Below are positions 2,736-22,482 of a stretch of 22,482 nt of DNA, one piece after another. The stretch is taken from IMG/VR virus record IMGVR_UViG_2531839146_000018; one strand, 5' to 3'. The notes beneath the pieces were generated by a model. That model made no database searches, was not told the DNA's origin, and saw only the letters and a list, made by a program, of their open reading frames with translations. The translations under genes were made by a program, and so were the position numbers. Origin of the DNA: a virus (taxonomy: Duplodnaviria > Heunggongvirae > Uroviricota > Caudoviricetes). Numbering within the stretch: position 1 is the first letter of the stretch; each line of letters begins with the position of its first letter.

Positions 2736-4070
2736 CTATGGCGTTGTTTTATGCCTTAAATTTGATTTTTTATTGATTGATAAGCCTTTCTCTATTTCAG
2801 GGTAGCGTAGAAGCTCAATATAGTTTTTAAGCTCTACTGGAGAAGCTGCATTCTTGCTATATGTGCGGAATGTCTCTGTATTGCCGCGTGTATGGCCCAG
2901 GAGAAGGGCGATCCTGTCTTCTGGAATTTGATTTCGATCAAGAAGCTGTGCTACTCCGTGTCTCAGAGAATGAAACACCTTCCTTTCTGTTCCCTTTTCC
3001 CCTAAAGCCTTTCGTTTAGCTCTTGTAAATCTCTGCGTGTGCCACGTGGAACGTTTACCATCAGCACGCTCTGTAATGCTGGCGTGATAGAACAAAAAGC
3101 CATTGTGAGGCTTTTCACGAAGAGATAACACCAATGGAGTGATAAGGCTATGCACAGGCACAACACGTGCCGCAGCTTTCGTCTTTCCCTGTGTGATTTC
3201 AAAACACAGCACACCTTCGATCTCTTTCACATCGTCTATTGTGAGACTTGCTATCTCATTGATCCGCATACCTGTATAAGCACCGATAAGACACAAAGCC
3301 ATCATTTCTTTGTTTTCTGCTGAATCACCGGAAAATACTTGCAACACTTGCAATAGCTCTTTGTTAGAAAATGCCTCATAGCTCTCTCTACTTTGTGCCA
3401 CATCAAGCCTATGCCCTCGCCAGGGGGAGAGCGCCCTTTCTGGCGCATCGTGGTAACGTGATGAAGCTAACTCCCATAGCTGGGCCATTGGGCTGATATA
3501 ATTTGCAATTGATTGTTGTGAAAGGGTTTTTTGCATGTGTTCTATCCAGCCTGTAACAGTGGTGCGGCTCACATCTTGCAATGCAATATCAGGCTTTTTA
3601 CGGTAGGAGAGAAACATCTCTACCGCTTTTCTTGCCTTAGCTAAAGTGGCTGGCTTCTTCTTCGTGCTGTTAATTGTCAGGTAGATTTCAAGAATTTTAA
3701 GCAATGACGGACACGAAGACGCTGTATCTTGCATTCTGGTAGCTGTTTTGGCGTATTTAGCCTTACTGCGTAACAGTTCCAGCGTGTTCTCTATTGTGCT
3801 GTTTACAGGGGCGACACTCTCCCGTAGACAATGGTATTCATCTGCAATCTGATCACGCTTTCTACGTGCAACACGAAGATTACTTGTGTGCAGACTTCTA
3901 ACAAACGTCCTTTTTCCTTCAAAAAAGGGCTGCATATACACAGGCAACGTGATCCTCAAATAGTAGTTACCGTAAGAATCACAGATTATGTATTGATTGG
4001 GCTTGTATCTCATAAACTCCCCGGCTAAAGTGTCGGAGCGTTTGTAATGTGAAAATTGATTGTAACGCAT
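2736..4070 (-). CDS. Tyrosine-type site-specific integrase/recombinase (444 aa; start may be the internal Met at 4013)
   Basis: C-terminal catalytic region with HxxR (FHSLRHGVAQLL) and LLGH...Y signature typical of phage integrase family; N-terminal part unrecognised. Confidence 0.85.
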   Translation of the reverse strand: MRYNQFSHYKRSDTLAGEFMRYKPNQYIICDSYGNYYLRITLPVYMQPFFEGKRTFVRSLHTSNLRVARRKRDQIADEYHCLRESVAPVNSTIENTLELLRSKAKYAKTATRMQDTASSCPSLLKILEIYLTINSTKKKPATLAKARKAVEMFLSYRKKPDIALQDVSRTTVTGWIEHMQKTLSQQSIANYISPMAQLWELASSRYHDAPERALSPWRGHRLDVAQSRESYEAFSNKELLQVLQVFSGDSAENKEMMALCLIGAYTGMRINEIASLTIDDVKEIEGVLCFEITQGKTKAAARVVPVHSLITPLVLSLREKPHNGFLFYHASITERADGKRSTWHTQRFTRAKRKALGEKGTERKVFHSLRHGVAQLLDRNQIPEDRIALLLGHTRGNTETFRTYSKNAASPVELKNYIELLRYPEIEKGLSINKKSNLRHKTTP

Positions 4071-4152: not shown

Positions 4153-4181
4153 TTTTACTCCTATTATCGGCACCATTCAAA
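4153..4181. repeat. Repeat X (TTTTACTCCTATTATCGGCACCATTCAAA), second copy at 21925-21952; candidate att-associated sequence
   Basis: About 24 of 29 positions shared with 21925-21952 in the same orientation. Confidence 0.45.
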
Positions 4182-4191
4182 CATCTCCCCA

Positions 4192-4272
4192 AGTCTACTA
4201 AAGTCTTTCAAAACCCCTTATAATCCGCGTATTAAAGCCCCGTTCGTCTTTTGACGTCTACTAAAGTCCCTC
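4192..4272. repeat. Two direct copies of TCTACTAAAGTC(T/C)(T/C)TCAAAA spaced about 63 bp apart in the inter-integrase region; candidate protein-binding (arm-type) sites
   Basis: Direct repeat read at about 4193-4212 and 4256-4275. Confidence 0.4.
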
Positions 4273-4288
4273 AAAATCTACGGCCAGA

Positions 4289-4340
4289 TGGGGGTACTTA
4301 TGGGGGTATTTGCTGTTCGGTTTAGTGGAGGTACCCCCAA
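4289..4340. repeat. Repeat Y: two direct TGGGGGTA copies (4289-4309) plus an inverted copy GTACCCCCAA (4331-4340) immediately upstream of the P4-type int start; near-identical direct copy at 21848-21868
   Basis: TGGGGGTACTTATGGGGGTAT versus TGGGGGTACTTTTGGGGGTAT at 21848-21868 (20 of 21 identical); candidate att core or integrase-binding sites. Confidence 0.5.
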
Positions 4341-5555
4341 GTGAAACTCAATGCCCGTCAAATAGACACAGCCAAGCCAAAAGAGAAGGCTTACAAGCTG
4401 GCCGATGGTGGCGGTTTGTATCTCTTGGTAAAACCTAATGGAGGTAAATACTGGCGACTTAAATATCGTGTAGCTGGTAAAGAGAAGCTATTGGCACTAG
4501 GTGTGTATCCTGAGGTTACTCTAGCCGATGCTCGGGCAAAACGTGAAGATGCGAAAAGAGGTATCGCTGGTGGTATCGATCCGATGGAAGCGAAACGAGA
4601 GGAAAAGATTGCCCGGGAAACGCAGTTAAACAACACCTTCAAAGATATTGCCCTTGAGTGGCACAGCAGTAAATTAAAAAAATGGTCTGCTGGTTATGCT
4701 TCAGACATCCTCGAAGCCTTCAACAAAGATGTGCTCCCTTACATTGGCAAAAAACCAATCGCCGAAATCAAACCACTTGAACTTCTGAATGTGCTGCGGC
4801 GCATCGAGGGGCGAGGTGCTACAGAAAAAGCCAAAAAAGTGAGGCAGCGGTGCGGGGAAGTTTTCCGCTATGCAATAGTCACTGGTCGCGCAGAGTATAA
4901 CCCTGCACCAGACCTTACTAGCGCGATGCAAGGCCATGAATCTAATCATTACCCTTTCCTTACAGCCAAAGAATTACCTGATTTTTTCAAGGCATTGTCC
5001 AGTTACTCAGGAAGCGCATTGGTTGTTATGGCGGCTCGTCTACTGATTATCACCGGCTTGCGAACTGGCGAACTACGTGGCGCATTATGGGATGAAATTG
5101 ATTTCAACAAGGCTATCTGGGAGATACCCGCTTCACGTATGAAAATGCGGCGGCCTCATATTGTGCCATTGTCTGAGCAGGCTCTTTCGCTTATTGGGAA
5201 GATTAGAGAAATAACAGGCAATTACCCTCTTATGTTTCCCGGGCGCAATGATCCAAGGAAAACAATGAGTGAGGCCAGCATAAACCAAGTGTTTAAGCGC
5301 ATTGGCTACGCTGGACGTGTAACTGGTCATGGGTTCCGGCACACTATGAGTACGATTTTGCATGAGCAGGGCTATAACACTGCGTGGATAGAAACACAGC
5401 TCGCTCACGTTGATAAGAACTCAATTCGTGGCACATACAACCATGCGCAATATCTGGATGGAAGGCGGGAGATGCTTCAATGGTATGCCGACTATATGGA
5501 TTCTCTCGAGCATGGCGGAAATGTGGTGCATATGGTGTTTGAAAAACACGCATGA
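4341..5555 (+). CDS. int: P4-type (IntA/CP4-57-like) tyrosine integrase, GTG start
   Basis: N-terminus MKLNARQIDTAKPKEKAYKLADGGGLYLLVKPNGGKYWRLKYR matches the conserved arm-binding N-terminal pattern of P4-family integrases; C-terminal HGFRHT...Y catalytic motifs; GGAGG 9 nt upstream of the GTG. Confidence 0.9.
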   Translation: MKLNARQIDTAKPKEKAYKLADGGGLYLLVKPNGGKYWRLKYRVAGKEKLLALGVYPEVTLADARAKREDAKRGIAGGIDPMEAKREEKIARETQLNNTFKDIALEWHSSKLKKWSAGYASDILEAFNKDVLPYIGKKPIAEIKPLELLNVLRRIEGRGATEKAKKVRQRCGEVFRYAIVTGRAEYNPAPDLTSAMQGHESNHYPFLTAKELPDFFKALSSYSGSALVVMAARLLIITGLRTGELRGALWDEIDFNKAIWEIPASRMKMRRPHIVPLSEQALSLIGKIREITGNYPLMFPGRNDPRKTMSEASINQVFKRIGYAGRVTGHGFRHTMSTILHEQGYNTAWIETQLAHVDKNSIRGTYNHAQYLDGRREMLQWYADYMDSLEHGGNVVHMVFEKHA

Positions 5556-5900: not shown

Positions 5901-5982
5901 TATTCGACATTTGACGCAAATAAAACTCTCGCCATTCGTTGCAGGAGGGGGTTATTGCGTCATTAGTACAGGATATTAATAA

Positions 5983-6186
5983 ATGGCTAATTACAATTCA
6001 TTAATTCGTCTCTCTGAAGTTCAAAGGCGAACTGGTTATAGCAAAGCATGGATTTATCGTCTTATTAGTCAGGGGAGGTTCCCTAAACAGGTAAAAATTG
6101 GAAGTCGGGCTATTGCTTTTGTTGAGTCTGAAATAGATGAATGGATTGAGAAGTGTATATTAGAATCTAGAGACGAGGTGGCCTGA
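5983..6186 (+). CDS. alpA: AlpA-family transcriptional regulator / excisionase-like protein
   Basis: 67 aa protein with the AlpA signature (LIRLSEV...TGYSKAWIYRLISQGRFPKQVKIG.R.IAFVESEIDEWI); position directly after a P4-type int. Confidence 0.85.
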   Translation: MANYNSLIRLSEVQRRTGYSKAWIYRLISQGRFPKQVKIGSRAIAFVESEIDEWIEKCILESRDEVA

Positions 6187-6617: not shown

Positions 6618-6629
6618 CGGAGACTGAAA

Positions 6630-9364: not shown

Positions 9365-9959
9365 TTTCTTAACTTTCCATGCAGAAGCAACGCCTGACGG
9401 CGTAAACATCATGTACCGCAGCAACGATGGAATGACAGAACGCGTTGAGGCCGTCTCATATATTGATGCCGTAAATCGTCTGGATGCCGGGGATTATGAC
9501 GATAAACCAGATGAAGGTATGTCAATACATCTCGCTATAGCCGATGGCGGCAACCAGGGATATTTCGATTACACATCACAGCATAACGTCATTATGTGGA
9601 GATGGCTGATCGCAACAGTATTCATGCTGGAAATGAGAGAGGAAAACGGCACTGTCAGCATCATTGATGATACTGGCAATCCTTCCGAAGTGGCTGTTTA
9701 TTCCAACGGCATCGTCGCCATGCCGCTGTATCCAGTAGCAGAGCGCCTCGCTATGGCAAACAACATTGAGGGCGCGATGATAGAACGTTTTGGCATCGAG
9801 TCTGGCACAGAACGCGCCATCATTTTCTACAGAGCCATGATGGATGTGGAACAAGGAGCACTGACTCCATTTGGTCGTGAAACGCTTGCTGAACTTCACA
9901 ACAGCTTTATAGCTGAACTGAATGAAAACGGCATGCCAGCGGAACCAGTGACGCACTGA
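9357..9959 (+). CDS. Hypothetical protein (200 aa from the ATG at 9357; MNNFLTFHAEATPDGVNIMYRSNDG...)
   Basis: ATG overlaps the previous stop; the ORF track's upstream extension (9252) is probably not translated. Confidence 0.65.
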   Translation: MNNFLTFHAEATPDGVNIMYRSNDGMTERVEAVSYIDAVNRLDAGDYDDKPDEGMSIHLAIADGGNQGYFDYTSQHNVIMWRWLIATVFMLEMREENGTVSIIDDTGNPSEVAVYSNGIVAMPLYPVAERLAMANNIEGAMIERFGIESGTERAIIFYRAMMDVEQGALTPFGRETLAELHNSFIAELNENGMPAEPVTH

Positions 9960-9969
9960 GGATGGAACC

Positions 9970-10311
9970 ATGATTACTAAAAATTTCCGACTGAATGCGC
10001 TGGCAAATAAGTATGCGTCGGCACTGTATAAGCACATTACCTCCACCAGCGGCGGGGACTATTTCATGGTTGATGCGGACGGCGAGGCCGTCCGTGTGGA
10101 AATCGTCAATGGAGTAAAAGGCGTTCGCAGCCTGATCGATAGCTACACACTAGCAGCCATGAAAGTGTTCTACCCGCAGTGGGAAACCGTGGGGATCGAG
10201 CTTCTTGATCGTTGCGTCACTAAGGACGGATTGACTGACGTCGGGCGTGAGATATGGCAAAGCATGGTTAATGACATGGGCGCAACTGTAGCGGGAGGTT
10301 CTCATGCGTGA
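9970..10311 (+). CDS. Hypothetical protein (113 aa)
   Basis: ORF in the same-strand coupled block upstream of the primase. Confidence 0.65.
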   Translation: MITKNFRLNALANKYASALYKHITSTSGGDYFMVDADGEAVRVEIVNGVKGVRSLIDSYTLAAMKVFYPQWETVGIELLDRCVTKDGLTDVGREIWQSMVNDMGATVAGGSHA

Positions 10312-10675
10312 AAATGCAGAAATGGCGCTTAGCTCCGCAATCGGAGAGCAGGTGGCAAAGATTGCTGGTGCTGTGTGGATTCATAACCTTCATTCTACTG
10401 GTGAAGAGAAAATGGCAATTCAGACGCCAGAGGGACGCACCATTACTACATCTCTGAAGCCGTCAGATGTTTGTGATCTGATTTGCGCATTCATGTACCC
10501 AGCAATGAGGACTGCCCACGGCGATAAGTGGAAACTTGCGACAACCGCTGAATTTGATATGTGGCTAAACAATGATGGCATGCTGACTGATTACGGAATA
10601 ACCAAGTGGCAGATGCTGGTTAGCCATATCGCAAACGCTATAGACCACGTGGGGTACGGTGATGCGAAACATTGA
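10304..10675 (+). CDS. Hypothetical protein (123 aa)
   Basis: ORF overlapping both neighbours; immediately precedes the primase. Confidence 0.65.
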   Translation: MRENAEMALSSAIGEQVAKIAGAVWIHNLHSTGEEKMAIQTPEGRTITTSLKPSDVCDLICAFMYPAMRTAHGDKWKLATTAEFDMWLNNDGMLTDYGITKWQMLVSHIANAIDHVGYGDAKH

Positions 10676-13418
10676 TCTTATCCGTCAGGTTATCAGTGCG
10701 TCTGAAAACAACTGGCCTCATGTGCTGGGCTGCCTGAACATAAATGTCCCTGACTCTCCGCGCCGTCATGCTCCCTGCCCTGCATGTGGGGGCAAAGATC
10801 GATTCCGGTTCGATGACAACGGGCGCGGTAGCTTCATCTGTAATCAGTGCGGCGCTGGTGATGGGCTGGATTTAATTAAACGCGTAAATAACTGCGACAC
10901 AACAGAGGCGGCGCTTCTTGCCGCTGATGTTCTGGGTATTGATTACCGGACAACGGAAACACCAGAAGCCACCAGCCAGAAACGGGAACAACTGGAAACC
11001 GAGCGCCAGCGACGCGAACAGGAGCGCCTGAAAAGGGCAGAGAAGGACGAACAACAAAGACGGGATACGTTTTCCCGTCAGTTTGATGACATGCGCAGAA
11101 AGGCTGTAAACGGCAAATCTGATTATCTGGTTGCGAAAGGGGTAGGTGATTTTACATTCCCCGTGTTGCCCGATGGATCTCTGTTGCTGGCGCTGGTGGA
11201 TAAATCCGGCGCAGTCACAGCAGCACAGACAATTACCTCACATGGTGAAAAAAGACTCCTGACAGGTTCAGCAAAGCGGGGGGCATATCACGCCATAAAC
11301 GCACCAGAAACAACACAGAGCATCTTAATCGCAGAAGGGCTGGCAACGGCATTATCTGCCCATTTAATTCGTCCAGAGGCGCTGACAGTGGCGGCGATTG
11401 ATGCCGGGAACCTGTTATATGTCGCCCAGGTACTGCGGGATAAATTTCCTTCAGCACAAATCATCATTGCTGCGGATAACGACCACAGCGAAGGAAGACA
11501 AAACACGGGGAGAATAGCAGCAGAAAAAGCAGCTTTATCTGTTTCTGGATGGGTGGCATTACCCCCGACAGATCACAAAGCAGACTGGAATGATTACCAC
11601 CAAAAACACGGCATTAAATGCGCCACAGAAGCGTTCAATAAATCAATGTACCAACCACAGGGTAATGGCGTGAAACAGGAGCCACAGACCATTGAAGGAA
11701 GCGATTTTAAGGTTATGGATACCGACCCACTGAAACCAAGAATAGAAAGCCGCGAGGATGGTATTTATTGGGTATCTCCGAGAGCTGACAGCCAGAGTGG
11801 AGAAATCATCAATAACGAAAGCTGGTTATGTTCTCCGTTAAGCGTTATCGGTACTGGCAGAGACGATAAAGACCAGTATCTCATTCTGCGCTGGCTGTCG
11901 TTTGGTTCTGAAACGCCGACAACCGCTGCCATTCCACTGGCTGATATTGGTGAACGTGAAGGATGGCGCACACTTAAAGCTGGTGGGGTAAATGTCACGA
12001 CCAAAAGCAGCCTCAGAGCAATACTGGCAGACTGGCTACAACGCAGTGGCTCTCGTGAATTGTGGCGTGTTGCTCATGCCACTGGCTGGCAATGCGGAGC
12101 GTACATCATGCCTGATGGGGAAATCATCGGAACACCTGAAAATCCTGTGCTGTTCAGCGGGAGAAGCTCAGCCGCAGCCGGATATACCGTCTCAGGGAGC
12201 GCGAAAAGCTGGCGTGATAACGTGGCGCGTCTGGCCTTTGGTAACTATTCAATGATGACCGGGATCGGCGCAGCACTGGCAGCGCCATTGATTGGGCTGG
12301 TGGGCGCTGACGGGTTCGGCATTCATTTCTATGAGCAGTCGAGCGCAGGTAAGACCACCACGGCAAACGTGGCGAGCAGCTTATACGGCAACCCTGATTT
12401 ACTGCGGCTGACGTGGTACGGAACCGCGCTGGGGCTGGCAAATGAGGCCGCCGCCCACAATGATGGATTAATGCCGCTTGATGAAGTTGGTCAGGGCGCT
12501 GATCCTGTCAGCGTTTCACAGTCTGCCTATGCGTTATTTAACGGTGTAGGGAAACTGCAAGGCGCTAAAGACGGTGGAAACCGGGATCTAAAACGCTGGC
12601 GTACAGTGGCAATCAGCACCGGAGAAATGGATTTAGAAACATTTATCGCTACTTCCGGGCGAAAAACTAAAGCCGGGCAACTGGTGCGACTGCTGAATAT
12701 TCCGTTGAGTAAAGCAGTACGCTTTCACGATTATCAGAACGGAAAACAGCACGCAGACGCACTGAAAGACGCTTACCAGCATCACCATGGCGCAGCCGGG
12801 CGTGAGTGGATTAAATGGCTGGCAGACCACCAGCAACAGGCAATTAAAACTGTTCGTGACTGCGAAAGCAGATGGAGAAGTCTGATCCCATCCGATTATG
12901 GTGAGCAGGTTCACCGTGTAGCCGCGCGATTTGCCATTCTGGAGGGCGCATTGCTGTTAGGCGAGGTTGTAACAGGCTGGGATGCTCAGATATGCCGTGA
13001 TGCGATACAGCACAGCTATAACGCATGGTTGCGCGAGTTCGGCACAGGTAACAAAGAACATCAGCAGATTATTGAACAAACGGAGGCATTTCTTAATGCC
13101 TATGGGCTTAGCCGTTTTGCACCATTTCCATACAGCCCGGCAGATTTGCCCATCAAAGATTTAGCCGGATACCGTCAGCGTGGAGAACATGACGAAAGCC
13201 CAATGATTTTCTACACATTCCCGGCCACATTTGAAAAGGAGATCGCATGTGGTTTCAACGCAAAACAGTTTGCTGAAGTGTTGAAAAAAGCCGGGATGCT
13301 AACCCCACCAAACAGCGGTCGTGGATACCAAAGAAAATCACCACGTATTCAGGGACGACAAATAAACGTTTATGTACTCAATTACCAGCCGGGAGATTAT
13401 AACTCATCTGAAGAATGA
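10662..13418 (+). CDS. Satellite/PICI-type replication protein: primase-helicase with N-terminal zinc finger, Toprim and C-terminal P-loop NTPase (DUF927-like) regions
   Basis: CPACGG...CNQCGAGDG zinc-binding motif, Toprim-like acidic motif IIIAADNDHSEGRQNTG, Walker A-like FYEQSSAGKTTT; family identification recalled, not searched. Confidence 0.9.
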   Translation: MRNIDLIRQVISASENNWPHVLGCLNINVPDSPRRHAPCPACGGKDRFRFDDNGRGSFICNQCGAGDGLDLIKRVNNCDTTEAALLAADVLGIDYRTTETPEATSQKREQLETERQRREQERLKRAEKDEQQRRDTFSRQFDDMRRKAVNGKSDYLVAKGVGDFTFPVLPDGSLLLALVDKSGAVTAAQTITSHGEKRLLTGSAKRGAYHAINAPETTQSILIAEGLATALSAHLIRPEALTVAAIDAGNLLYVAQVLRDKFPSAQIIIAADNDHSEGRQNTGRIAAEKAALSVSGWVALPPTDHKADWNDYHQKHGIKCATEAFNKSMYQPQGNGVKQEPQTIEGSDFKVMDTDPLKPRIESREDGIYWVSPRADSQSGEIINNESWLCSPLSVIGTGRDDKDQYLILRWLSFGSETPTTAAIPLADIGEREGWRTLKAGGVNVTTKSSLRAILADWLQRSGSRELWRVAHATGWQCGAYIMPDGEIIGTPENPVLFSGRSSAAAGYTVSGSAKSWRDNVARLAFGNYSMMTGIGAALAAPLIGLVGADGFGIHFYEQSSAGKTTTANVASSLYGNPDLLRLTWYGTALGLANEAAAHNDGLMPLDEVGQGADPVSVSQSAYALFNGVGKLQGAKDGGNRDLKRWRTVAISTGEMDLETFIATSGRKTKAGQLVRLLNIPLSKAVRFHDYQNGKQHADALKDAYQHHHGAAGREWIKWLADHQQQAIKTVRDCESRWRSLIPSDYGEQVHRVAARFAILEGALLLGEVVTGWDAQICRDAIQHSYNAWLREFGTGNKEHQQIIEQTEAFLNAYGLSRFAPFPYSPADLPIKDLAGYRQRGEHDESPMIFYTFPATFEKEIACGFNAKQFAEVLKKAGMLTPPNSGRGYQRKSPRIQGRQINVYVLNYQPGDYNSSEE

Positions 13419-13440
13419 GCTTCTTCATGTGCGTAGAAAA

Positions 13441-13555
13441 GGTGTTGGTTCAGTTGGTTCAGTTGGTTCAATTTGTAAAGAGTATTGTTTTATAAGGATT
13501 TTATTCTTTTTATTGAACCAACACTGAACCAACAATACGGTATTTTGAACCAACA
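13441..13555. repeat. Iteron-type replication origin candidate: three direct GTTGGTTCA repeats (13444-13470), AT-rich spacer, three inverted TGAACCAACA repeats (13514-13555)
   Basis: Repeats read directly; location immediately downstream of the primase gene matches ori placement in P4/PICI-type elements. Confidence 0.7.
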
Positions 13556-13662
13556 CAATGTGACTGAATTGATGCGCACAACACCTGGCTGGCATCAGAG
13601 AGTGTTTTACGAGACTTTCGTAAAATCCTGTGTACAAGGGCGTGACGTTTTTGAAAGTGAGC

Positions 13663-13681
13663 ACTACGAAATTTTCGTAGT
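13663..13681. promoter_or_regulatory. Perfect palindrome ACTACGAAA-T-TTTCGTAGT; the same half-site motif (CGAAAATTTCGTAGG) recurs twice at 21539-21575
   Basis: 9 bp inverted arms read directly; shared motif at the right end suggests a common DNA-binding protein site. Confidence 0.4.
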
Positions 13682-13874
13682 TCAGAAAACAGGCCCTGAG
13701 AAGTTGTTATGCCTGTTCAGCAAACCATCCGCATAGCTGATCGCGAATCAAATTACCAATGGAGCCAGAAGTAAGGGCAGAACTGAAAAGCGCCTGCCGT
13801 GAAGAGTAATGCGACACCATAAATATAGTTTTTAGAGTCCATAAAAAACCTGTCAAAACCTGACACACAGAACG

Positions 13875-13908
13875 ATGCCACCAGCTACTGAACGGTGGCA
13901 TTTTTTTG
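13875..13908 (+). terminator. Rho-independent terminator candidate (8 bp stem ATGCCACC/GGTGGCAT, 11 nt loop, followed by TTTTTTT)
   Basis: Hairpin plus a 7-T run read directly. Confidence 0.6.
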
Positions 13909-14002
13909 TGCTATTTGTTTCATATTTTGCAATTACGATGATGAATATTGCGATTTGTGAAACTATAATAACTGTTGTTTTATACAGTTCTAAGGGGGCG
14001 TT

Positions 14003-14164
14003 ATGGCTGTTTCAGTAAAGCCGGTATTGATAAGTGAGAAGCAAATGGAAGCGATAAAGAAAATTCAGGAAGAGCAGCGTAAAAAATCAGGAATTGGAGT
14101 AGCGCCAACTCTGCATGAAATTGCACGAGGGTTAATAGATAAGGCGCTGGCAGGCTGTATGTGA
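14003..14164 (+). CDS. Small protein (53 aa; MAVSVKPVLISEKQMEAIKKIQEEQRKKSGIGVAPTLHEIARGLIDKALAGCM), possibly a ribbon-helix-helix type DNA-binding regulator
   Basis: Strong AAGGGGG Shine-Dalgarno 3-4 nt before the ATG; beta-strand then two-helix pattern typical of Arc/CopG-like proteins; not in the ORF track (under 60 aa). Confidence 0.5.
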   Translation: MAVSVKPVLISEKQMEAIKKIQEEQRKKSGIGVAPTLHEIARGLIDKALAGCM

Positions 14165-14180
14165 AAATGGATGGCATCGC

Positions 14181-14642
14181 ATGGAACTAAAATTTATTGA
14201 TAACCCTGTGCGATTACAGGCCTTTCTTAACGAGCCTGGCAATACCGAAAATATTGTTGAGCCGGGGCACACGTACTACATCAAGCCTGATGCGGTATAT
14301 CTCGGCATCTACGAAGGATTAGTGCTGGCCGGCGTTCATGAAGTGCGTAACTTCTGGCATAGCGTTGTTGAATGCCATGCGGTGTACGACCCCGGATTCC
14401 GTGGTGAATATGCACTGCAAGGTCATCGATTATTCTGCAAATGGCTTCTCGAAAACTCACCATTCCTTAACAGCGTCACCATGGTTCCTGACACAACGAA
14501 ATACGGACGGTCAATTATCCGTTTGCTTGGCGCTACCCGTGTTGGTCACCTGGCCGATGCATATATCAGATGTGGTAAGCCAGTCGGCGTAACGCTTTAT
14601 CAGTTAACGCGGCAACAATATAAGGAACTCAGCGAATGTTAA
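14181..14642 (+). CDS. Hypothetical protein (153 aa), first gene of the four-gene cargo operon; unknown function
   Basis: ORF tightly followed by three overlapping downstream genes; no domain recognised. Confidence 0.7.
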   Translation: MELKFIDNPVRLQAFLNEPGNTENIVEPGHTYYIKPDAVYLGIYEGLVLAGVHEVRNFWHSVVECHAVYDPGFRGEYALQGHRLFCKWLLENSPFLNSVTMVPDTTKYGRSIIRLLGATRVGHLADAYIRCGKPVGVTLYQLTRQQYKELSEC

Positions 14643-15313
14643 TTACCCATATAGCTCATAAACATCTCAATCGTGCCGTATACGAAAAAGGCGGTGATGG
14701 TGGTGCCTCTAAAGCCCAGGCGAAGGCCCAGCAGCAGGCAATTGATTTGCAGCGCGAGCAGTGGAATACGGTGATGAATAATCTCAAGCCGTATGCAGAA
14801 GTCGGATTGCCTGCTTTACAACAACTACAAGGACTGATGACTCTGGAAGGGCAGAATAAAGCCGCGAATGATTTCTTTGGTTCTGGTTTATATAAAACAC
14901 AGGCAGATCAGGCCCGTTATCAGAACCTTGTCTCAGCAGAAGCTACCGGGGGGCTTGGCTCAACAGCTACCAGTAACCAGTTATCTTCCATTGCGCCCAT
15001 GCTTTATAACAATTGGCTCAGTGGGCAAATGCAAAATTATGGAAACCTGCTAAATGTCGGGATGAATGCGGCATCAGGGCAGGCAACAGCAGGGCAAAAC
15101 TACGCCAATAATACCGGACAACTCTTGCAGGGGCTTGGCGCTATTCGTGCAGGTCAGGCGCAGCAGCCATCCAGTCTTGCGCGTGGTATTGGTGGGGCGG
15201 CATCAGGCGCTTTAGCGGGTGCGCAACTTGGTTCCGTTGTTCCGGGTATAGGTAATGTCGCCGGGGCTATTGGTGGTGGGCTTATTGGTCTTGTTGGGGG
15301 GCTTGGATTCTAA
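14636..15313 (+). CDS. Low-complexity Q/A/G-rich protein (225 aa) with glycine-zipper-like hydrophobic C-terminus; candidate ejection/injection (P22 gp7-like) protein
   Basis: Start overlaps the upstream stop; composition and C-terminal GGLIGLVGGLGF segment; the P22-like assignment rests on size, order and composition only. Confidence 0.75.
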   Translation: MLITHIAHKHLNRAVYEKGGDGGASKAQAKAQQQAIDLQREQWNTVMNNLKPYAEVGLPALQQLQGLMTLEGQNKAANDFFGSGLYKTQADQARYQNLVSAEATGGLGSTATSNQLSSIAPMLYNNWLSGQMQNYGNLLNVGMNAASGQATAGQNYANNTGQLLQGLGAIRAGQAQQPSSLARGIGGAASGALAGAQLGSVVPGIGNVAGAIGGGLIGLVGGLGF

Positions 15314-16734
15314 TGGCGACATGGCAACTTGGCGGGCTGCCTGGCATGGCACCGCAAAATGATAATGCTCCTCGTTCTTCCGTTCCTCAGCCTGTGCAGT
15401 ATCAGCAGCAGCCAAACGTAGGTTTAATGGCGCTACAGGGGCTAAGAGGCGTTGCTGAGATTAATCAGCAGGCACGTCAACAACAGCGTAAAGCAGAGTT
15501 TCAGAAAGCATATGCCGGGGCTTTTGAGTCTGGAGACAGAAACAAAATGCGCAGTCTTATTTCTGAGTATCCAGAAGAATTTGAAAGCGTTCAGAAAGGG
15601 ATGGGCTTTATTGATGACGACCAGAGAAATTCTATTGGTCATCTTGCGACTAGTGCTCAAATCGCATCTTCGCTCGGAACTGGGGCATTTGGAAAATTCA
15701 TAGCAGATAACGAAGATGAAATGCGTCGCTTGGGAATTTCTCCTGAGTCTGTTGCCGAAATGCATGTTAATGATCCACAGGAATTCCAGCGGCTTGCTGG
15801 TAGTATGGCACTGTTTTCTCTCGGTCATGAGAAGTACTTCGATATCAAAGATCGAATGGAAGGTCGGGATATTGAGCGTGGCAAGTTGGCAGAGACAATC
15901 CGCAGCAATCAGGCTGGAGAGGCGCTTCAGGCGAGAGGGCAGGATATTAGCCGAGCAAATGCGTTAACGTCAGCATATGCACCAACAGCCGCAATGCAGA
16001 ATTACAATCAGTACGCGCAAATGTTAAAGGCGGATCCAGAGGGGGCAGCGGCATTTGCGGCAGCGGCTGGAATTAATACAAACGCCAAAAAATTAATGAG
16101 TGTTAGGGAAAACGATGATGGCACTGTCACAAAATACTACACAGACGGAAGTGAAGAGCAGGGAAAACTAAACCAGCCAATATCTGGAGATGGGTTTCGT
16201 CCAATAGCTTTGCCAACAGCTCAAAAGATCATGGAAAAGTCGCCAGAAGGGGCTAAAAAAGTTGCTGGATTTGCATACAGAGTTAGGGATGCTCTTGATT
16301 CAATGGATACACTGAAAGGCCAGCTTAGCCCACAGCGAGTGGCGATCATTAATAATGCTTTGGGTAATGGGACGCTGGCTAACTTAACGCTCAGCCCAAC
16401 AGAGCAGCAATACGTTGTTAATGCTAATGACGCAATAATGGCAATACTCCGTCAGGAAACAGGGGCAGCAATCGTACCTGCTGAAATGTCAAAATATTAT
16501 CAAATGTATTTCCCTCAGCCTGGCGACTCCACAAAAACCATTGATACCAAGCGCCGGAAGATGGAAAACCAGTTCAATTCGCTGAAAGCTGCTTCTGGTC
16601 GAGCTTATGATGCTTTGCGTGTTATTTCAGCAGTTGACAGAGGAACTTCTTCTTCGTCGCAGACATTGCCGCAATCTGAGCAGGTATCACAGCCAGCAGC
16701 CAGCAGTAATTTTTCTTCACTATGGGGTGATTAA
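15313..16734 (+). CDS. Low-complexity Q/A/S-rich protein (473 aa); candidate ejection/injection (P22 gp20-like) protein
   Basis: TAATG start/stop overlap with neighbours; size close to 471 aa recalled for P22 gp20; no sequence-level confirmation. Confidence 0.8.
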   Translation: MATWQLGGLPGMAPQNDNAPRSSVPQPVQYQQQPNVGLMALQGLRGVAEINQQARQQQRKAEFQKAYAGAFESGDRNKMRSLISEYPEEFESVQKGMGFIDDDQRNSIGHLATSAQIASSLGTGAFGKFIADNEDEMRRLGISPESVAEMHVNDPQEFQRLAGSMALFSLGHEKYFDIKDRMEGRDIERGKLAETIRSNQAGEALQARGQDISRANALTSAYAPTAAMQNYNQYAQMLKADPEGAAAFAAAAGINTNAKKLMSVRENDDGTVTKYYTDGSEEQGKLNQPISGDGFRPIALPTAQKIMEKSPEGAKKVAGFAYRVRDALDSMDTLKGQLSPQRVAIINNALGNGTLANLTLSPTEQQYVVNANDAIMAILRQETGAAIVPAEMSKYYQMYFPQPGDSTKTIDTKRRKMENQFNSLKAASGRAYDALRVISAVDRGTSSSSQTLPQSEQVSQPAASSNFSSLWGD

Positions 16735-18839
16735 TGGCTAAAGCATGGAAAGATGTTATCGCCTCTCCACAGTATCAGGCGTTAGCACCAGAACAAAAAG
16801 TGCAGGCTCAGGAGCAATACTTCAATGAAGTCGTGGCCCCACAAGCCGGAGAAAGTGTAGAGCAGGCTAAGCAGGCTTTTTATGCTGCCTATCCACTACC
16901 ATCAACGAATGAAATAGACAGATCCCAATCAGCAACTCAAAATATTCAACATACATCATCTGATAATTCTCTTGCGTCAGGGTATGCAAAGTTAGCTACT
17001 CAGCAAAGAGAGGGGCTTGAGCGTTCAGCAGAACAGGGAGCCAGTCTTGGGGCTGCGATGCGCGATGCTATAACAGGCGAAAGCCGAATGACTCCAGAGA
17101 TGGAGAGACTGCAAAATGTCGCCTCTGCCCCAGAATTGAACTCACTAAGCATGGATGCCCTGAAGGCTGGATGGTCTCAACTTTTCGGCTCTGACGCGTC
17201 TCAGGAAAAGATTCTTCAGGGAATGGGGGCGACATTAAGGCAGGATGAGAAGGGGAATACTATCGTTTCTCTTCCATCAGGTGATTATGCCCTGAACAAG
17301 CCGGGTTTATCACCGCAAGACCTGACTTCGTTTCTTGCTAATGCGTTGGCGTTTACACCAGCGGGCAGGGCTGGAACGGTGCTTGGTGCCATAGGAAAAT
17401 CAGCAGCTACAGATTTAGCACTACAGGGAGCCACCAGCCTTGCTGGTGGAGAAGATATTGATCCGTTACAAACGGTAATTTCTGCTGGCATTGGTGGTAT
17501 TGGTAAGGGGCTGGAAAATACAGCGAGTGCGGTTTCGAGGGCTGTTCGTGGTGATATGTCTCCTGAAGCAAAGGCTGCTGTCGACTTTGCATCGGAAAGA
17601 AATCTGCCGTTAATGACCAGTGACATGCTGAAAGATAAAACCTTTATGCAGAGTCAGGCTCAGACATTAGGCGAAAGAGTTCCTTTTTTTGGAACCGGTA
17701 AGAATCGACTGAATCAACAACAAGCACGAGAAAATTTAGTCAGAACATTTAGCGATGGTCTGGGTAGCATTTCTGATAAACAGCTTTATGAATCTGCGAC
17801 TAAAGGGCAACAAAAATTCATTGAGGCAGCAGGAAAGCGATATAACCGCATAATTGACGCTATGGGGGATACCCCTGTCGATCTCTCAAACACGGTAAAA
17901 ACTATCGACAATCAGATTGCCGTGTTAAGCCGCCCTGGCAAATCTCAGGATAGAGCCGCGGTAAAAGTCTTGCAGCAATTTAAAGACGATATCACCAGCG
18001 GACCAAATGACCTGCGTCTGGCGAGGGAAAACAGAACCGATCTTCGAAAGCGATTTATAGCGTCATCTGACACTGTTGATAAAGATACGCTACAGAAAGC
18101 CAGCGATATTATCTACAAGGCATATACGGCGGATATGAAAAAAGCCGTAGCCAAAAATCTTGGAGCAGACGAAGCCATTAATATGGCAAGGGTTGATCGC
18201 TCATGGTCTAAATTCAATGACATGATGGGAAGAACACGCGTTCAAAAGGCAATAGCCAGCGGCAAGTCCACGCCTGAGGATGTAACAAAACTCGTTTTTA
18301 GCCAAAGCCCATCAGAACGTTCTCAGCTTTACAGGCTTCTGGATGACAATGGTAGGCAAAACGCACGAGCAGCCATAGTTCAGAATGCTGTAGATAAGGC
18401 GACTGATCCGTCTGGAAATATCAGTGTTGAGAAGTTTATTAATGCGTTACACCGGAACAGGAAGCAATCAGCAACTTTCTTTAAAGGCGTACATGGAAAG
18501 GAACTGGACGGCGTTATTAAATACCTCAACGATACAAGACACGCGGCAAAAGCGAACGTTCAAAACTTAAATGGTCAGCAACTTTATGGATTATTAGTTG
18601 GTGGTGGCATCATAAACGCAGCAGTATTGGCGGGGATGCTAAAAACGGCTGCGTTTGTTGTTCCTGCTGCTGGTGCCGTAGGCGGAGCAGCGAAGGCATA
18701 CGAAAGCCCTGTTATACGAAATGCCTTGTTACGTCTGGCAAATACGCCAAAAGGTAGCACAGCATATGACAGAGCGATCAGTACGGTCACACAATCGCTC
18801 ACCAGAGTCGCACAGGCATCACAAAAAGAAGCTCAATAA
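16734..18839 (+). CDS. Large low-complexity protein (701 aa) with C-terminal hydrophobic segments; candidate ejection/injection (P22 gp16-like) protein
   Basis: TAATG overlap with the upstream gene, GGGGTGA Shine-Dalgarno; C-terminal membrane-like region LYGLLVGGGIINAAVLAGML... Confidence 0.8.
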   Translation: MAKAWKDVIASPQYQALAPEQKVQAQEQYFNEVVAPQAGESVEQAKQAFYAAYPLPSTNEIDRSQSATQNIQHTSSDNSLASGYAKLATQQREGLERSAEQGASLGAAMRDAITGESRMTPEMERLQNVASAPELNSLSMDALKAGWSQLFGSDASQEKILQGMGATLRQDEKGNTIVSLPSGDYALNKPGLSPQDLTSFLANALAFTPAGRAGTVLGAIGKSAATDLALQGATSLAGGEDIDPLQTVISAGIGGIGKGLENTASAVSRAVRGDMSPEAKAAVDFASERNLPLMTSDMLKDKTFMQSQAQTLGERVPFFGTGKNRLNQQQARENLVRTFSDGLGSISDKQLYESATKGQQKFIEAAGKRYNRIIDAMGDTPVDLSNTVKTIDNQIAVLSRPGKSQDRAAVKVLQQFKDDITSGPNDLRLARENRTDLRKRFIASSDTVDKDTLQKASDIIYKAYTADMKKAVAKNLGADEAINMARVDRSWSKFNDMMGRTRVQKAIASGKSTPEDVTKLVFSQSPSERSQLYRLLDDNGRQNARAAIVQNAVDKATDPSGNISVEKFINALHRNRKQSATFFKGVHGKELDGVIKYLNDTRHAAKANVQNLNGQQLYGLLVGGGIINAAVLAGMLKTAAFVVPAAGAVGGAAKAYESPVIRNALLRLANTPKGSTAYDRAISTVTQSLTRVAQASQKEAQ

Positions 18840-18842
18840 CTG

Positions 18843-18869
18843 GTTAGCCACGGATGGCTAATTTTTGTT
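18843..18869 (+). terminator. Rho-independent terminator candidate for the cargo operon (stem GTTAGCCA/TGGCTAA(T), loop CGGA, then TTTTTGTT)
   Basis: Hairpin and T-run read directly, 4 nt after the stop of the 701 aa gene. Confidence 0.65.
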
Positions 18870-19277
18870 CTTTGCTCTCATCCACAGGTAAAGAAGGGCA
18901 AGAACAAGACAAAAAACAGAGAATAGATAACCTACCTCATATGGTGCGCCAAAAAAATTAGCTATTGATACGGGCAAAAAAGCTGAAGCGATCAAAATTG
19001 AAAGGCAAAAAATAAGCCCAGTAATATAGTTTATTAAATTCTTAAATGAGAAATGTTTTGCTTGATTTACGGTCTTAGCGAATGATCGCTTAACGACGGA
19101 TAAAAGCAAATAGATGGCGACAGTTGCTAATGCCCCTTTCCACCAATCTGGATATAGTTTTGCGACAATCAGACCAAGGAAAACCATGATGACAGCCTGA
19201 GCATTCACACCAACCCTCCCTTTAGCGTTGTTTAGAATGGCAATCATCATATATCCAAGACATGGCATTTGGTACAT
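18858..19277 (-). CDS. Small integral membrane protein (139 aa, about 4 hydrophobic helices), AT-rich; moron-like, candidate superinfection-exclusion or abortive-infection factor
   Basis: Convergent with the cargo operon; strongly hydrophobic segments; markedly lower GC than neighbours. Confidence 0.6.
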   Translation of the reverse strand: MYQMPCLGYMMIAILNNAKGRVGVNAQAVIMVFLGLIVAKLYPDWWKGALATVAIYLLLSVVKRSFAKTVNQAKHFSFKNLINYITGLIFCLSILIASAFLPVSIANFFGAPYEVGYLFSVFCLVLALLYLWMRAKNKN

Positions 19278-19401
19278 AGCTTGGGTCGGGATTTCAAATC
19301 CGATCCCCGTTGATGGGGCCGTTACAGTACGCGCATATCCGCTTTATGTGAAACAGGAAGATTTTTCTGATATCACTGCCACAGCAAAACACCAATTTCG
19401 G

Positions 19402-19704
19402 GACAAGTACGCGCGCGAGGGGTATCAGTTGCAAAAAATTTTGCAACTACGTCCGACCAGTATGCACACGATGGCGGGGGGATACCATAAAACTGTTCTC
19501 TACATGAGACAGAGTGGTGGTGATGTGTTGATTATCGGCGTATATGCGCACAGGACGCGCTATGACGATGTTTTATGCGGGTACACCAATCCCATGTATC
19601 TGGTGTGATAAATCGCGTTACATGACCTCTCATGTTGTGCTGGTGGTTATCACGACGTTCTGAATCTGGCCTTTGCCTGGTATTTTGCGACAAGTACGCG
19701 CGCG
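19402..19704. repeat. Degenerate GC-rich region with a 16 bp direct repeat GACAAGTACGCGCGCG (19402-19417 and 19689-19704) and an operator-like inverted repeat GTTGCAAAA-AA-TTTTGCAAC (19428-19447)
   Basis: Repeats read directly; no convincing ORF on either strand. Confidence 0.4.
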
Positions 19705-20252
19705 TAGCATCGAAATAATCGGATGGCGTATGCTGCTGGTAATATGAAGACCGATAGCATTAACCGTAAGGAGAAAGACTTCTCGATAACGGCAAGATCG
19801 CGGCAAGGGGGCTGAATTGCGAGGCGAGATTAAGCAACTGTCTTGAACGTAAAAATCATGGAGCAACATGATGGTACGATTCATTCCATTCTTCGTTCTT
19901 TCTGAGCATTGCGTTCAGGCTTAGTCAAAATTAGTGTTGCGAGCGGACCTATTAGTAATTGTTAGTGCGATGCGCCTGTTATGGATTGTTATGGTTGTGG
20001 CAGGCCTGATTAATATCCAGTATGACCACCAGCTATGAGAGGCCACCTCAGTGGTTCGCAGTTGCAGGTTTGCACTCAGGTTCGCAGGGTTTTGGCTACT
20101 TTCACGTGCGAACCTGCAGAATTGCAAAGGACAACTAAGTCCTCTGGCCAACTCCCGGTTTATGAGCGACACAGTCCGCCTGGCGCATCGTTTTCGTCGA
20201 GTGCGCCCATCAGCTTGTCCATGGACTATCCACCACTCGATATTAAAGCTAA

Positions 20253-20438
20253 TCATTGGTTGCCAGCCCGCGAATCAAGTTTGTTCTGGATCCAAGCTTC
20301 AACCTCCTCAAGCGACCATCTAGCTGATCTACCAATTTTAACTGGCTGTGGAAACGTGCCCGTCTTAACCCATGAGTAGATTGCCGTTTTCTTGAAGCCC
20401 GTTCTGAGCATAACTTCGCTTAATTTGATAAGGCGCAT
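20253..20438 (-). CDS. Second AlpA-family regulator (61 aa), opposite orientation to the first
   Basis: MRLIKLSEVMLRTGFKKTAIYSWVKTGTFPQPVKIGRSARWSLEEVEAWI matches the AlpA signature. Confidence 0.75.
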   Translation of the reverse strand: MRLIKLSEVMLRTGFKKTAIYSWVKTGTFPQPVKIGRSARWSLEEVEAWIQNKLDSRAGNQ

Positions 20439-20486
20439 AGAGGCTCCTCTGCTTTAGATTAAGCATAGTGACAATCTGGCTTTGGC

Positions 20487-20521
20487 GGTATCCAAAAGCG
20501 AGGTATCCATGTTGGTATCCA
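20487..20521. repeat. Three direct GGTATCCA repeats spaced 12-15 bp, upstream of the minus-strand alpA-like gene; candidate binding sites
   Basis: Read directly at 20487-20494, 20502-20509 and 20514-20521. Confidence 0.35.
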
Positions 20522-20689
20522 CCAAAACGCTGTTTACCAAAAAAGTTACCACCGGAACAGGACATTTTGAGCTGTAACTTAACACATAGCATATGGAGTT
20601 CACGCATAGACTTCACGCACAACGGCTCCGGCCAGTGAAGAATCACCCTGGCTGGCAATATAATGCCGATCACCATCAGAGGGGGATCC

Positions 20690-20881
20690 ATGACACCACG
20701 AGAAATCGAGCTGCTGACCATTGCCAAGCTGGAGCATGACGGCCACCAGCTCAGCCCGGCAGAACTGCGGGAATTAAGGCGCCAGCTGGCAGAGGGCCCT
20801 GTAATAGCCAGGCGGTACCGCGAAATGATGACCAGCCCCGCATATCGCTGGAGCAAACCAGCGCCGCTCCGTGCGCGGTGA
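20690..20881 (+). CDS. Small hypothetical protein (63 aa; MTPREIELLTIAKLEHDGHQLSPAELRELRRQLAEGPV...)
   Basis: GGGGGA Shine-Dalgarno just upstream of the ATG at 20690; helical charged composition; function unknown. Confidence 0.45.
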   Translation: MTPREIELLTIAKLEHDGHQLSPAELRELRRQLAEGPVIARRYREMMTSPAYRWSKPAPLRAR

Positions 20882-20955
20882 GCAGCACCTAACCAGCACT
20901 AGACAAGCCCTGTGCTGGTGGATGTCCCTCATAATTAGCGGTTTTTAAACAGCGT

Positions 20956-21077
20956 GTTGGTTCACGGCCTCTTTTTGTTGGTTCAAAAATGGGGTGTGTT
21001 GGTTCACTTTTTGCGAATAATTCTTTTAAAAACAATACTCTTTACAAATTGAACCAACTGAACCAACTGAACCAACA
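20956..21077. repeat. Second iteron-type origin-like region, inverted relative to 13441-13555: three TGTTGGTTCA (20956-21007), AT-rich spacer, three TGAACCAAC (21051-21077)
   Basis: The reverse complement of 21020-21077 is nearly identical to 13437-13495 (about 58 bp); the remaining iterons have different spacing. Confidence 0.7.
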
Positions 21078-21112
21078 CCTTTTTGCTTATCTATATAGTC
21101 TGAGAGGCAGAA

Positions 21113-21400
21113 ATGATAAGGGACAGGAAAGCTGAAGATCTGGAGTCAAAAGGGCTATACCGGAGAGCTGCCGCACGATGGGCAGAAATCATGATGCTGG
21201 CAGATGGCGATAAAGAACGTGAACATGCAGCAAACAGACGCTCTGAATGTATCCGTAAGGCGGCACGCCAACCAGCAACTACAGACAGATTCGGAGATTT
21301 AAGACAGGCAGTTAAGCGAACTCATTCGGCTCTTGGTATGGATGAGGAAGCGAGAGGGTACTTCAGGCGTTATCGCGATAAAGATTGCCAGAGACAGTAA
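21113..21400 (+). CDS. Small basic protein (95 aa), possibly a PerC-family transcriptional regulator
   Basis: GAGAGG Shine-Dalgarno; N-terminus MIRDRKAEDLESKGLYRRAAARWAEIM resembles the PerC/Pch family as recalled; uncertain. Confidence 0.55.
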   Translation: MIRDRKAEDLESKGLYRRAAARWAEIMMLADGDKEREHAANRRSECIRKAARQPATTDRFGDLRQAVKRTHSALGMDEEARGYFRRYRDKDCQRQ

Positions 21401-21489
21401 TGCTCTCTCTGTTTTGGCAAATTACCCTTCACTTTGAAGAGATCGGAGCTATAAAAATGGTGTTATCCGGCTTCCTCAAATTGAGGTTT

Positions 21490-21750
21490 CCGAAAATATC
21501 AGCGGGTTAGCGATTAATCTGGCGAGTAATTAAACTGCGAAAATTTCGTAGGGGGTTACGAAAATTTCGTAGGTCTACTCATGGTTTAGGCTTACTTTCC
21601 CGACATCCCCCAATGGGTGGGGGCGAAATAATCAATGGGTTAGGCTTACCTCCCCCATTTCCTGCATTGCAGGTTTTCGAAAGAATCAATGGGTTAGGTC
21701 ATCGTGCAAATTTGCACTCTGACAGCCAACGCAATTTCTCGTTGGCGGAA
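21490..21750. repeat. Structured repeat array: three units (about 53 bp period) each starting (AAT)CAATGGGTTAGGCTTAC-like and followed by a different GC-rich hairpin; two CGAAAATTTCGTAGG motifs; perfect palindrome GTGCAAATTTGCAC (21704-21717)
   Basis: Unit starts at about 21580, 21633 and 21687; hairpins CCCCCAATGGGTGGGGG, CCTGCATTGCAGG and GCCAACG...CGTTGGC read directly. Confidence 0.5.
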
Positions 21751-21847
21751 ATATCAGGTATTTACTGAACGAACGGTCTACCCGCCTGTTCAACTACCAG
21801 TTGTACATGGCTGCTTTATGTGCAAATGGTGGTGAGAGAAAATTGTT

Positions 21848-21952
21848 TGGGGGTACTTTTGGGGGTATCTTCAAAGATGTAATTGGAAAATATCTTTATA
21901 TATCAATGTATTTTTATTGTTTGTTTTGTTCCTATTATCGCACCATTTAAAT
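21848..21952. repeat. Right-end copies of repeat Y (21848-21868) and repeat X (21925-21952); candidate attR or integrase-binding region marking the right boundary of the island
   Basis: Y matches 4289-4309 at 20 of 21 positions; X matches 4153-4181 at about 24 of 29; the X/Y order is reversed relative to the left junction. Confidence 0.45.
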
Positions 21953-22071: not shown

Positions 22072-22482
22072 TTAAGCCAATTGCTGCCGCCATTCCTTGA
22101 CGTGGTCAATCAGGGCGCGGAGCTTTGGTGCAATATTGCGACGCTGTGGGAAATACAGATAGAAGCCTGGAAATTGTGGAAGAAAGTCATCAAGCAGCGA
22201 TACAAGCTTACCGCTTTCAATATATGGCCTGAAAGTTTCCTGAGTGGCAATTGTTATTCCTTCACCGACAAGAGCCAGCTGCAACATCAGACGCAGATCA
22301 TTAGTCGTAATCTGCGGTTCAATCGCAAGGTCGAAAGTTCTCCCGTTTTCTTCAAATGGCCAGCGATAAGGCGCAACCTCCGGGGACTGACGCCAGCCGA
22401 TACACTTATGGGTATTTCCCCCGGAGGCGAGAAAGCGCTCTCCACGCCCGGCCGCAAGGATCAGGACGACGGGGGCAGGCAT
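22072..22482 (-). CDS. LysR-family transcriptional regulator, C-terminal substrate-binding domain (partial; N-terminus lies beyond the window end)
   Basis: C-terminal region ...LVGEGITIATQETFRPYIESGKLVSLLDDF...FYLYFPQRRNIAPKLRALIDHV is typical of LysR-type effector domains; taken as chromosomal flank. Confidence 0.75.
   Translation of the reverse strand: MPAPVVLILAAGRGERFLASGGNTHKCIGWRQSPEVAPYRWPFEENGRTFDLAIEPQITTNDLRLMLQLALVGEGITIATQETFRPYIESGKLVSLLDDFLPQFPGFYLYFPQRRNIAPKLRALIDHVKEWRQQLA

Follow-up and report, generated by a model that had tools for sequence, protein, structure and literature searches.

A P4-family attachment site at the ends of an EcCIMP1-like island inserted at thrW

The window analysed here (the whole stretch of 22,482 nucleotides) starts inside one mobile element, called element A below, continues through an island of ~17.8 kb (4157-21947) and ends in chromosomal DNA. 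Just inside its left end, beside an attachment site, the island carries the gene for a tyrosine integrase with an arm-binding domain as well as a tyrosine-recombinase domain (Pfam matches within 4341-5555 to PF13356, Arm-DNA-bind_3, at 1.4e-28, and to PF22022 and PF00589). This is followed by a gene for an AlpA-family protein, which is likely to be the excision and directionality factor. The other island genes encode an AntA antirepressor, an Ash protein, a TOPRIM/DUF927 primase and a PerC-family regulator, together with P22-type DUF2824 and ejection proteins (P22-like gp7/gp20/gp16-type genes at 14181-18839). Two repeated motifs, X and Y, occur at both ends of the island. The features needed for what follows are these:

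2736..4070, minus strand: integrase of the neighbouring element A (DUF6538 + Phage_integrase)
4157..4177, plus strand: X-left, the attL core; 4157-4175 are the last 19 nt of the tRNA-Thr gene thrW (ACTCCTATTATCGGCACCA), followed by TT
4171-4177 (left) and 21941-21947 (right), plus strand: putative strand-exchange (overlap) region CACCATT
4193..4276, plus strand: accessory repeats GTCTACTAAAGTCYYTCAAAA of 21 nt at 4193-4213 and 4256-4276, in the P' arm only
4289..4312, plus strand: Y-left, in the P' arm; a direct pair of predicted arm-type repeats of 12 bp, TGGGGGTACTTA (at -52 from the start codon of int) and TGGGGGTATTTG (at -40)
4328..4339, minus strand: GTACCCCCA, the inverted third repeat of the P' arm; it follows the GGAGG ribosome-binding site and abuts the int start codon (GTG)
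4341..5555, plus strand: tyrosine integrase of 404 aa (N-terminal arm DNA-binding domain, central domain, catalytic domain), start GTG at 4341
5983..6186, plus strand: AlpA-family helix-turn-helix protein (Pfam Phage_AlpA, E = 7e-20)
21848..21871, plus strand: Y-right, in the P arm; a direct pair of predicted arm-type repeats of 12 bp, TGGGGGTACTTT and TGGGGGTATCTT, with a start-to-start distance of 81 nt to the TTCCTATT of X-right
21901..21913, plus strand: IHF-like site TATCAATGTATTT, matching WATCAANNNNTTR at 12 of 13 positions, in the AT-rich spacer between Y-right and X-right
21930..21947, plus strand: X-right, the attR core; TCCTATTATCG-CACCA followed by TT, a copy of the thrW 3' end without one G
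22072..22410, minus strand: chromosomal right flank, a LysR-family pseudogene fragment (yagP-like) and then the start of paoD

The interior of the island contains other repeats and RNA-like sequences. Sequences that match the Rfam families isrK (69 bits) and C4 antisense RNA (81 bits), in the intervals 8013-8090 and 8153-8240, fall within or beside the Ash-family gene and are consistent with a P4/P1-type RNA immunity module. Two clusters (13437-13561 and 20949-21083), each made up of three copies of GTTGGTTCA, an AT-rich spacer and three copies of TGAACCAAC, lie 7.5 kb apart and bracket the P22-type ejection genes; the first begins 19 nt past the primase stop codon, and their 65-nt arms are 94% complementary. 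Similar iteron clusters, crr and ori, are present in P4, whose primase binds them. Nearer the right end, the stretch 21472-21757 holds four units of ~39 nt (at 21472, 21605, 21659 and 21732), in each of which a short hairpin precedes TTTCGAAARAATCARYGGGTTAG; CGAAAATTTCGTAGG occurs as a pair (21538 and 21559) and once more, in inverted form, at 13664-13682. The part of this stretch from 21659 to 21822 is common to the relative in E. coli CX05 discussed below.

The island is an integrated phage satellite, a PICI similar to EcCIMP1 whose module for replication and integration is of the P4 type, and is a variant of the EcCIMP1 element that has already been studied. EcCIMP1 is a PICI of E. coli MP1 which is mobilised by the P22-like phage Kapi1; its excision and circularisation were followed by PCR and sequencing, and they require a helper phage as well as int and alpA (ISME J 2025, PMC11773190). 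The integrases of the two elements are identical at 403 of 404 residues, the attL of EcCIMP1 in MP1 is identical to that of the window, and the AlpA accession WP_000035054.1 is common to the MP1 annotation and to the orthologue in a third locus (L001) that matches the window at 99.9%. The backbone is likewise the same (antirepressor, Ash, TOPRIM/DUF927 primase, DUF2824 and ejection genes, PerC), as are the position at thrW next to proA and the flanking direct repeats TCCTATTATC, which were presumed to be the core of EcCIMP1 in a study that leaves arm-type sites unmentioned (PMC11773190). EcCIMP1 differs in its length (19,963 bp against ~17.8 kb here), in the P-arm spacer and in some of its right-end genes. 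The contiguous attP of the island had no match in the phage collection.

A preliminary description of this DNA had reported that X and Y recur at the two ends in reversed order, and this is borne out by the sequence. Y-right at 21848-21868 (TGGGGGTACTTTTGGGGGTAT) is identical to Y-left at 4289-4309 (TGGGGGTACTTATGGGGGTAT) at 20 of 21 positions, while X-right at 21925-21952 aligns to X-left at 4153-4181 with 25 of 29 columns identical and one 1-nt gap (TCCTATTATCG-CACCATT on the right against TCCTATTATCGGCACCATT on the left). All of these copies are on the plus strand, so that the left end reads X-Y and the right end Y-X. What had been missed was a third copy of Y, inverted, at 4328-4339 (a perfect 9-nt inverted repeat with 4289-4297), and the identity of X as the 3' end of tRNA-Thr thrW. 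The pattern is far beyond chance. Five copies of TGGGGGTA are present in the 22.5-kb window (4289, 4301, 21848 and 21860 on the plus strand, 4332-4339 on the minus strand) against 0.32 expected, five or more were found in none of 100 shuffles of the window, and all five sit at the two junctions, no more than 185 nt from X. The 17-mer TCCTATTATCGGCACCA had no match in the same number of shuffles.

The assignment of X to thrW comes from comparison with the genomes of relatives. The majority of E. coli matches to the island begin at position 4157, and it is there that the intact tRNA-Thr gene thrW (adjoining proA) ends in strain M24FEP, with the same integrase gene next to it. In L001 and MP1 the end of a complete thrW coincides with X-left, and what follows is the same sequence, including the same int. 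On the other side, the DNA 3' of X-right is continuous with the sequence of the empty site. When thrW joined directly to the right flank was used as a query, ~1,586 E. coli genomes with an unoccupied site were recovered, and in these sites the X sequence is not duplicated. X is thus a tRNA 3'-end sequence that forms a direct repeat at both boundaries of the island and is single where the island is missing, and we therefore identify it as the att core and place the island at 4157-21947. A tRNA scan of the window with ARAGORN called no tRNA, because only a 19-nt fragment of thrW is present and element A puts the intact gene beyond the left edge.

Element A makes this locus a tandem array. X-left doubles in the window as the right junction of element A, which uses the same 19-20 nt of thrW as its core. 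Strain 20KM2222 (L083), which is 98.7% identical to the window across 356-22482, shows the complete order: intact thrW, element A of ~13 kb (L083:1410-14494), X-left and then the island. A second integrase-bearing element thus abuts the core copy with the intact tRNA gene beyond it, and sequential integration did occur at this locus. The part of element A in the window (1-4156) also contains a major capsid gene and a gene for a Dit-like baseplate protein (1941-2654), and element A is possibly a small satellite-like island in its own right; at 4108-4122 there is a degenerate stretch, GTAATGGTCGTAGGT, that resembles thrW. MP1 is also a tandem array at thrW, with the opposite arrangement to that of the window: a related, degraded island is represented immediately to the right of the EcCIMP1 attR by its P' arm and by a truncated gene for the arm-binding domain (L086:560-720).

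The organisation of Y around the core is that of the arm-type sites of satellite phage P4. The P4 record (NC_001609) annotates five 'attP arm sequence repeat' features of GGGGGCA in 12-bp units, labels which are a matter of sequence annotation. Read in the direction of int, the P4 attP consists of a pair of repeats, 53 nt, a 20-bp core (the leuX 3' end, ...GGCACCA), 112 nt, a second pair, 15 nt and an inverted copy at the start of int, the last (3915-3926) overlapping the int start. If the attP of the island is rebuilt by joining its right end to its left end via the core, it aligns collinearly with that of P4: the pair at 21848-21871, ~57 nt, the core, 113 nt, the pair at 4289-4312, 15 nt, the inverted copy at 4328-4339 and the int GTG at 4341. 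Each arm thus has one pair, and the P' arm has in addition the inverted copy at the start of int. The two systems thus agree in their spacings (53-57, 112-113 and 15 nt), in the 12-bp unit and in a core that is a tRNA 3' end, GGCACCA, followed by TT. Their integrases are 42% identical and have the same N-terminus, and P4 Int reportedly footprints on these arm repeats. The P4 motif is one base off (GGGGGCA against GGGGGTA here, at base 6), and this goes together with differences at Int residues 29, 50 and 53. The target also differs (leuX rather than thrW), the attP-side core of the island has a 1-nt deletion relative to the tRNA, and the cargo and helper are distinct: the island is P22-like, and no sid, delta or psu genes were detected in the window.

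The Y-right pair recurs in other elements. MP1 has an identical Y-right pair with the same 81-nt spacing to the core despite a divergent spacer sequence, and the pair is also kept in L003 and L014. In 9 of 11 elements, P4 included, a site with at most one mismatch to the IHF consensus follows the P-arm pair at an offset of +47 to +52, and by its sequence would be a DNA-bending site. The accessory repeats GTCTACTAAAGTCYYTCAAAA are candidates for binding by the AlpA-type excision factor, or else by some other accessory protein; the hexamer they contain varies by clade at fixed positions (GTCTAC, GTCAAC and, in P4, TCCGAG), and a further ATCTAC lies at 4276-4281, by the second GTCTACTAAAGTCYYTCAAAA copy. 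Consensus promoter and terminator scans of attL and attR returned nothing useful. A weak -35/-10 pair that overlaps the first Y copy can be picked out by eye, unsupported by the promoter scan.

The wider family allows the behaviour of Y to be followed across many integrases. We collected 79 integrase relatives (61-98% identity) from species-representative genomes, and these adjoin seven different tRNA genes. Their layout has the tRNA end at about -165 from int, the direct motifs at about -51 and -39 and the inverted one at about -9, the position and 12-bp period of the direct pair being kept in more than 70 of the 79. The motif itself differs by clade (GGGGGTA, GGGGGCA, GTATAG [GTGTATAG] or GGGGGCC), and the copies within one element change together. 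At the far end a direct pair of the clade's own motif was found ~65-75 nt before the tRNA 3' copy in eight relatives, namely those whose far end falls within the fetched 10-kb flank (most islands are longer), as well as in E. coli NDM2 (L003) and MP1. The motif-pair scan recovered these eight right ends, where fuzzy matching of the tRNA end had found three. Small deletions just before CCA occur in the far-end tRNA copies of several relatives (L070, L032, L033, L037 and L078) and echo the single-G core of the island; in L070, for instance, the copy at 17826-17843 reads CTGGGGCACCA against CTGGGGGCACCA.

A natural exchange of modules separates Y from the cargo. E. coli CX05 (L084, NZ_CP081719.1 49831-89994) carries the same satellite backbone at yicC-dinD, which is not a tRNA site; its integrase and that of the island share only 29% identity. 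Similarity to the right end of the window stops at 21822, 26 nt before Y, and the arm motif of this element is instead GTGTACATA, repeated at both ends with a 12-bp pair at the far end. The whole integration module (int, AlpA and both arms) has thus been swapped. Since the backbone is the same while the integrase and the end motifs differ, Y travels with the integrase module and not with the cargo.

The sequence of Y also covaries with that of the integrase. We aligned 62 integrases, 41 from GGGGGTA elements and 21 from GGGGGCA elements (P4 among the latter), and found that three columns perfectly separate the two motif classes:

Int residue 29: Leu in GGGGGTA elements; Glu or Gln in GGGGGCA elements
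Int residue 50: Leu in GGGGGTA elements; Arg in GGGGGCA elements
Int residue 53: Leu, Val or Ile in GGGGGTA elements; Phe in GGGGGCA elements

All three lie in the arm-binding domain, and none of the other ~300 columns does the same. On a neighbour-joining tree of the catalytic part, a quick tree of related sequences, there are at least five changes of motif class, each of them accompanied by a change at residues 29 and 50. The arm-site sequence therefore tracks the integrase independently of the cargo. This covariation, which is correlative, favours the N-terminal domain of Int over AlpA as the reader of Y.

Taken together, these data make it very probable that X is the crossover core, that Y is the arm-binding site of a P4-type integrase, and that X-Y...Y-X is the normal product of integration of the island in thrW. 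The preliminary description had already raised the possibility that one motif was an arm-type site rather than the core; this proved well founded, with X as the core and Y as the arm-type site, as the P4 attP layout and the covariation of motif and Int both indicate. The catalytic domain of Int would recognise and cut X (the thrW 3' end, common to attP and attB), while its N-terminal domain is predicted to recognise the TGGGGGTA repeats. In the circular form, attP would consist of a P arm (the Y pair and ~57 nt of AT-rich DNA with the IHF-like site), the core and a P' arm (~113 nt, the Y pair, 15 nt, the inverted Y and the start of int). Recombination of attP with thrW would then split attP at the core, so that the left end receives the P' arm and int, and the right end the P arm. 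Y then lies to the inside of the core at either end, and the order must read X-Y...Y-X; the reversal needs no duplication event and implies none. Excision would require Int together with the AlpA-type factor. Physical binding of Y by Int, the involvement of IHF, autoregulation and the precise points of cleavage are put forward here as predictions.

A small difference between the two core copies suggests where the strands are exchanged. attL keeps the GG of the tRNA whereas attR has a single G, and this heterology is present in four differing elements (the window island, L003, L014 and MP1); because it recurs in this way, the single G looks like a feature of attP and not the result of decay. 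Exchange would be expected to the right of the G/GG position, because exchange further left would have given attR the GG of attB, and it would not extend past CACCATT, since attP and attB are no longer the same at the following base. Strand exchange is therefore most likely to take place in these 7 nt (the discriminator base together with CCA and TT), a length that is usual for the overlap in this class of enzyme. By eye, the flanks of CACCATT match at ~4 of 9 positions, too few for core-type inverted repeats to be proposed there. Placing the exchange in CACCATT would refine the published proposal of TCCTATTATC as the core. We give roughly even chances to the joint proposition, for which there is partial support, that exchange occurs in CACCATT with a tolerated 1-nt deletion in the attP-side core half-site and that residues 29 and 50 of the DUF4102/Arm-DNA-bind_3 domain (Leu/Leu versus Glu-or-Gln/Arg) specify base 6 of the arm motif (T versus C) in the manner of a simple code.

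The relationship of this attachment site to two other systems is one of principle and architecture. In lambda attP (P1, P2/core/P'1-3) the integrase binds two classes of site, the arms flank the core, and the attL and attR hybrids have the core outermost. The island shares the general principle of two site classes with the core outermost in the hybrids, but its integrase belongs to an unrelated clade and its sites bear no relation to those of lambda in sequence, number or spacing; in lambda, int is not transcribed through attL. The other system is the IntS-TorI module of KplE1, HK620 and Sf6, which has the same orientation of tRNA and int and an attL that overlaps the int promoter; the island integrase is ~50% identical to IntS of Sf6, CUS-3 and Kapi1. 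The island is analogous to this module in architecture but does not belong to it. The IntS arm sites of KplE1 share a TAAA motif (PMC2951348) where the island has TGGGGGTA, its excision factor is TorI in place of an AlpA-family protein, and its target is argW. In KplE1, the P' arm-type sites and excision-factor sites within attL lead to negative autoregulation of intS by IntS (PLoS Genet 2010, PMC2951348). By comparison, the P' sites that overlap the 5' region of the island int probably allow Int to repress its own gene, a suggestion that rests on analogy because no consensus sigma-70 promoter was detected in attL by the scan.

Other explanations of the reversed order have to be set against this one. 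The preliminary description had suggested sequential integrations at overlapping att sites, in which case X and Y would have come from different elements and the reversal would be a trace of two events. Half of this suggestion stands: the locus is truly tandem, with element A, which has an integrase of its own (2736-4070, minus strand), ending at X-left here and lying between intact thrW and X-left in 20KM2222, and MP1 has its own adjacent degraded island to the right of EcCIMP1. As the cause of the reversed order, however, successive integration is very unlikely, since genomes with only the island (L001, and the left end in MP1) already show thrW(X)-Y...Y-X, P4 attP carries Y-X-Y on one molecule, and in 10 elements, as well as in the CX05 swap, the arm motif at either end follows the resident integrase. 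That the right-hand Y and X are instead a relic attR left by an earlier occupant of thrW, such as a P22-like prophage, might be supposed from the nature of the site (thrW is the attachment site of P22), from the P22-like ejection genes at 14181-18839 and from the missing G of the right core. Yet the ejection genes are also present in EcCIMP1 and in the CX05 element, which occupies a non-thrW site, so they travel with the satellite backbone and we rejected a P22 prophage remnant as the owner of the right end. The single G recurs in four differing elements, and the sequenced excision boundaries of EcCIMP1 coincide with the right-hand TCCTATTATC (PMC11773190); a relic attR is accordingly extremely improbable.

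An alternative that leaves X as the core would make Y the operator of another protein, either the AlpA-type factor or a repressor. Y-left does overlap the int 5' region, where a regulator would be expected to bind, excision-factor sites also lie in the attL of KplE1 (PMC2951348), and AlpA differs along with int in the CX05 element, so that this swap cannot separate the two proteins. The covariation is what tells against it, the motif class having switched together with Int residues 29 and 50 at least five times; moreover, the layout of two, two and one inverted copies is that of the annotated arm repeats of P4, and the repeat confined to the P' arm (GTCTAC...) is a better candidate for the excision factor. 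We consider an operator of this kind unlikely. Finally, the shortness of X and Y might in itself suggest a generic dispersed repeat with no role in recombination, an outcome that the preliminary description had also allowed for. This is scarcely credible: the strict pair GGGGGTA-N5-GGGGGTA occurs 47 times in the 1.63 Mb of loci that we fetched, always at attL or attR, and at 1-4 places per carrying genome in a search of 5,426 E. coli genomes, which is not the distribution of a REP- or ERIC-like repeat.

The feature is a textbook P4-family attachment site, in an element that has already been described and tested experimentally. What is new is in the detail, in that the G/GG difference would put the exchange in CACCATT; otherwise this is ordinary, known biology. 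For annotation, the analysis provides exact island boundaries (4157/4177 to 21930/21947), two elements stacked at thrW and a variant of EcCIMP1. The clade-specific pair of motifs 12 bp apart, ~80 nt inside the far copy of the core, is a practical signature of attR, and with its help an attR in a P4-family island could be assigned to its integrase, even in tandem arrays where core repeats by themselves are ambiguous. Both the G/GG heterology and the correlation with residues 29 and 50 are details that can be tested and whose scope is limited, although if the residue code is true, the arm-site specificity of these integrases would become predictable from sequence or open to re-engineering.
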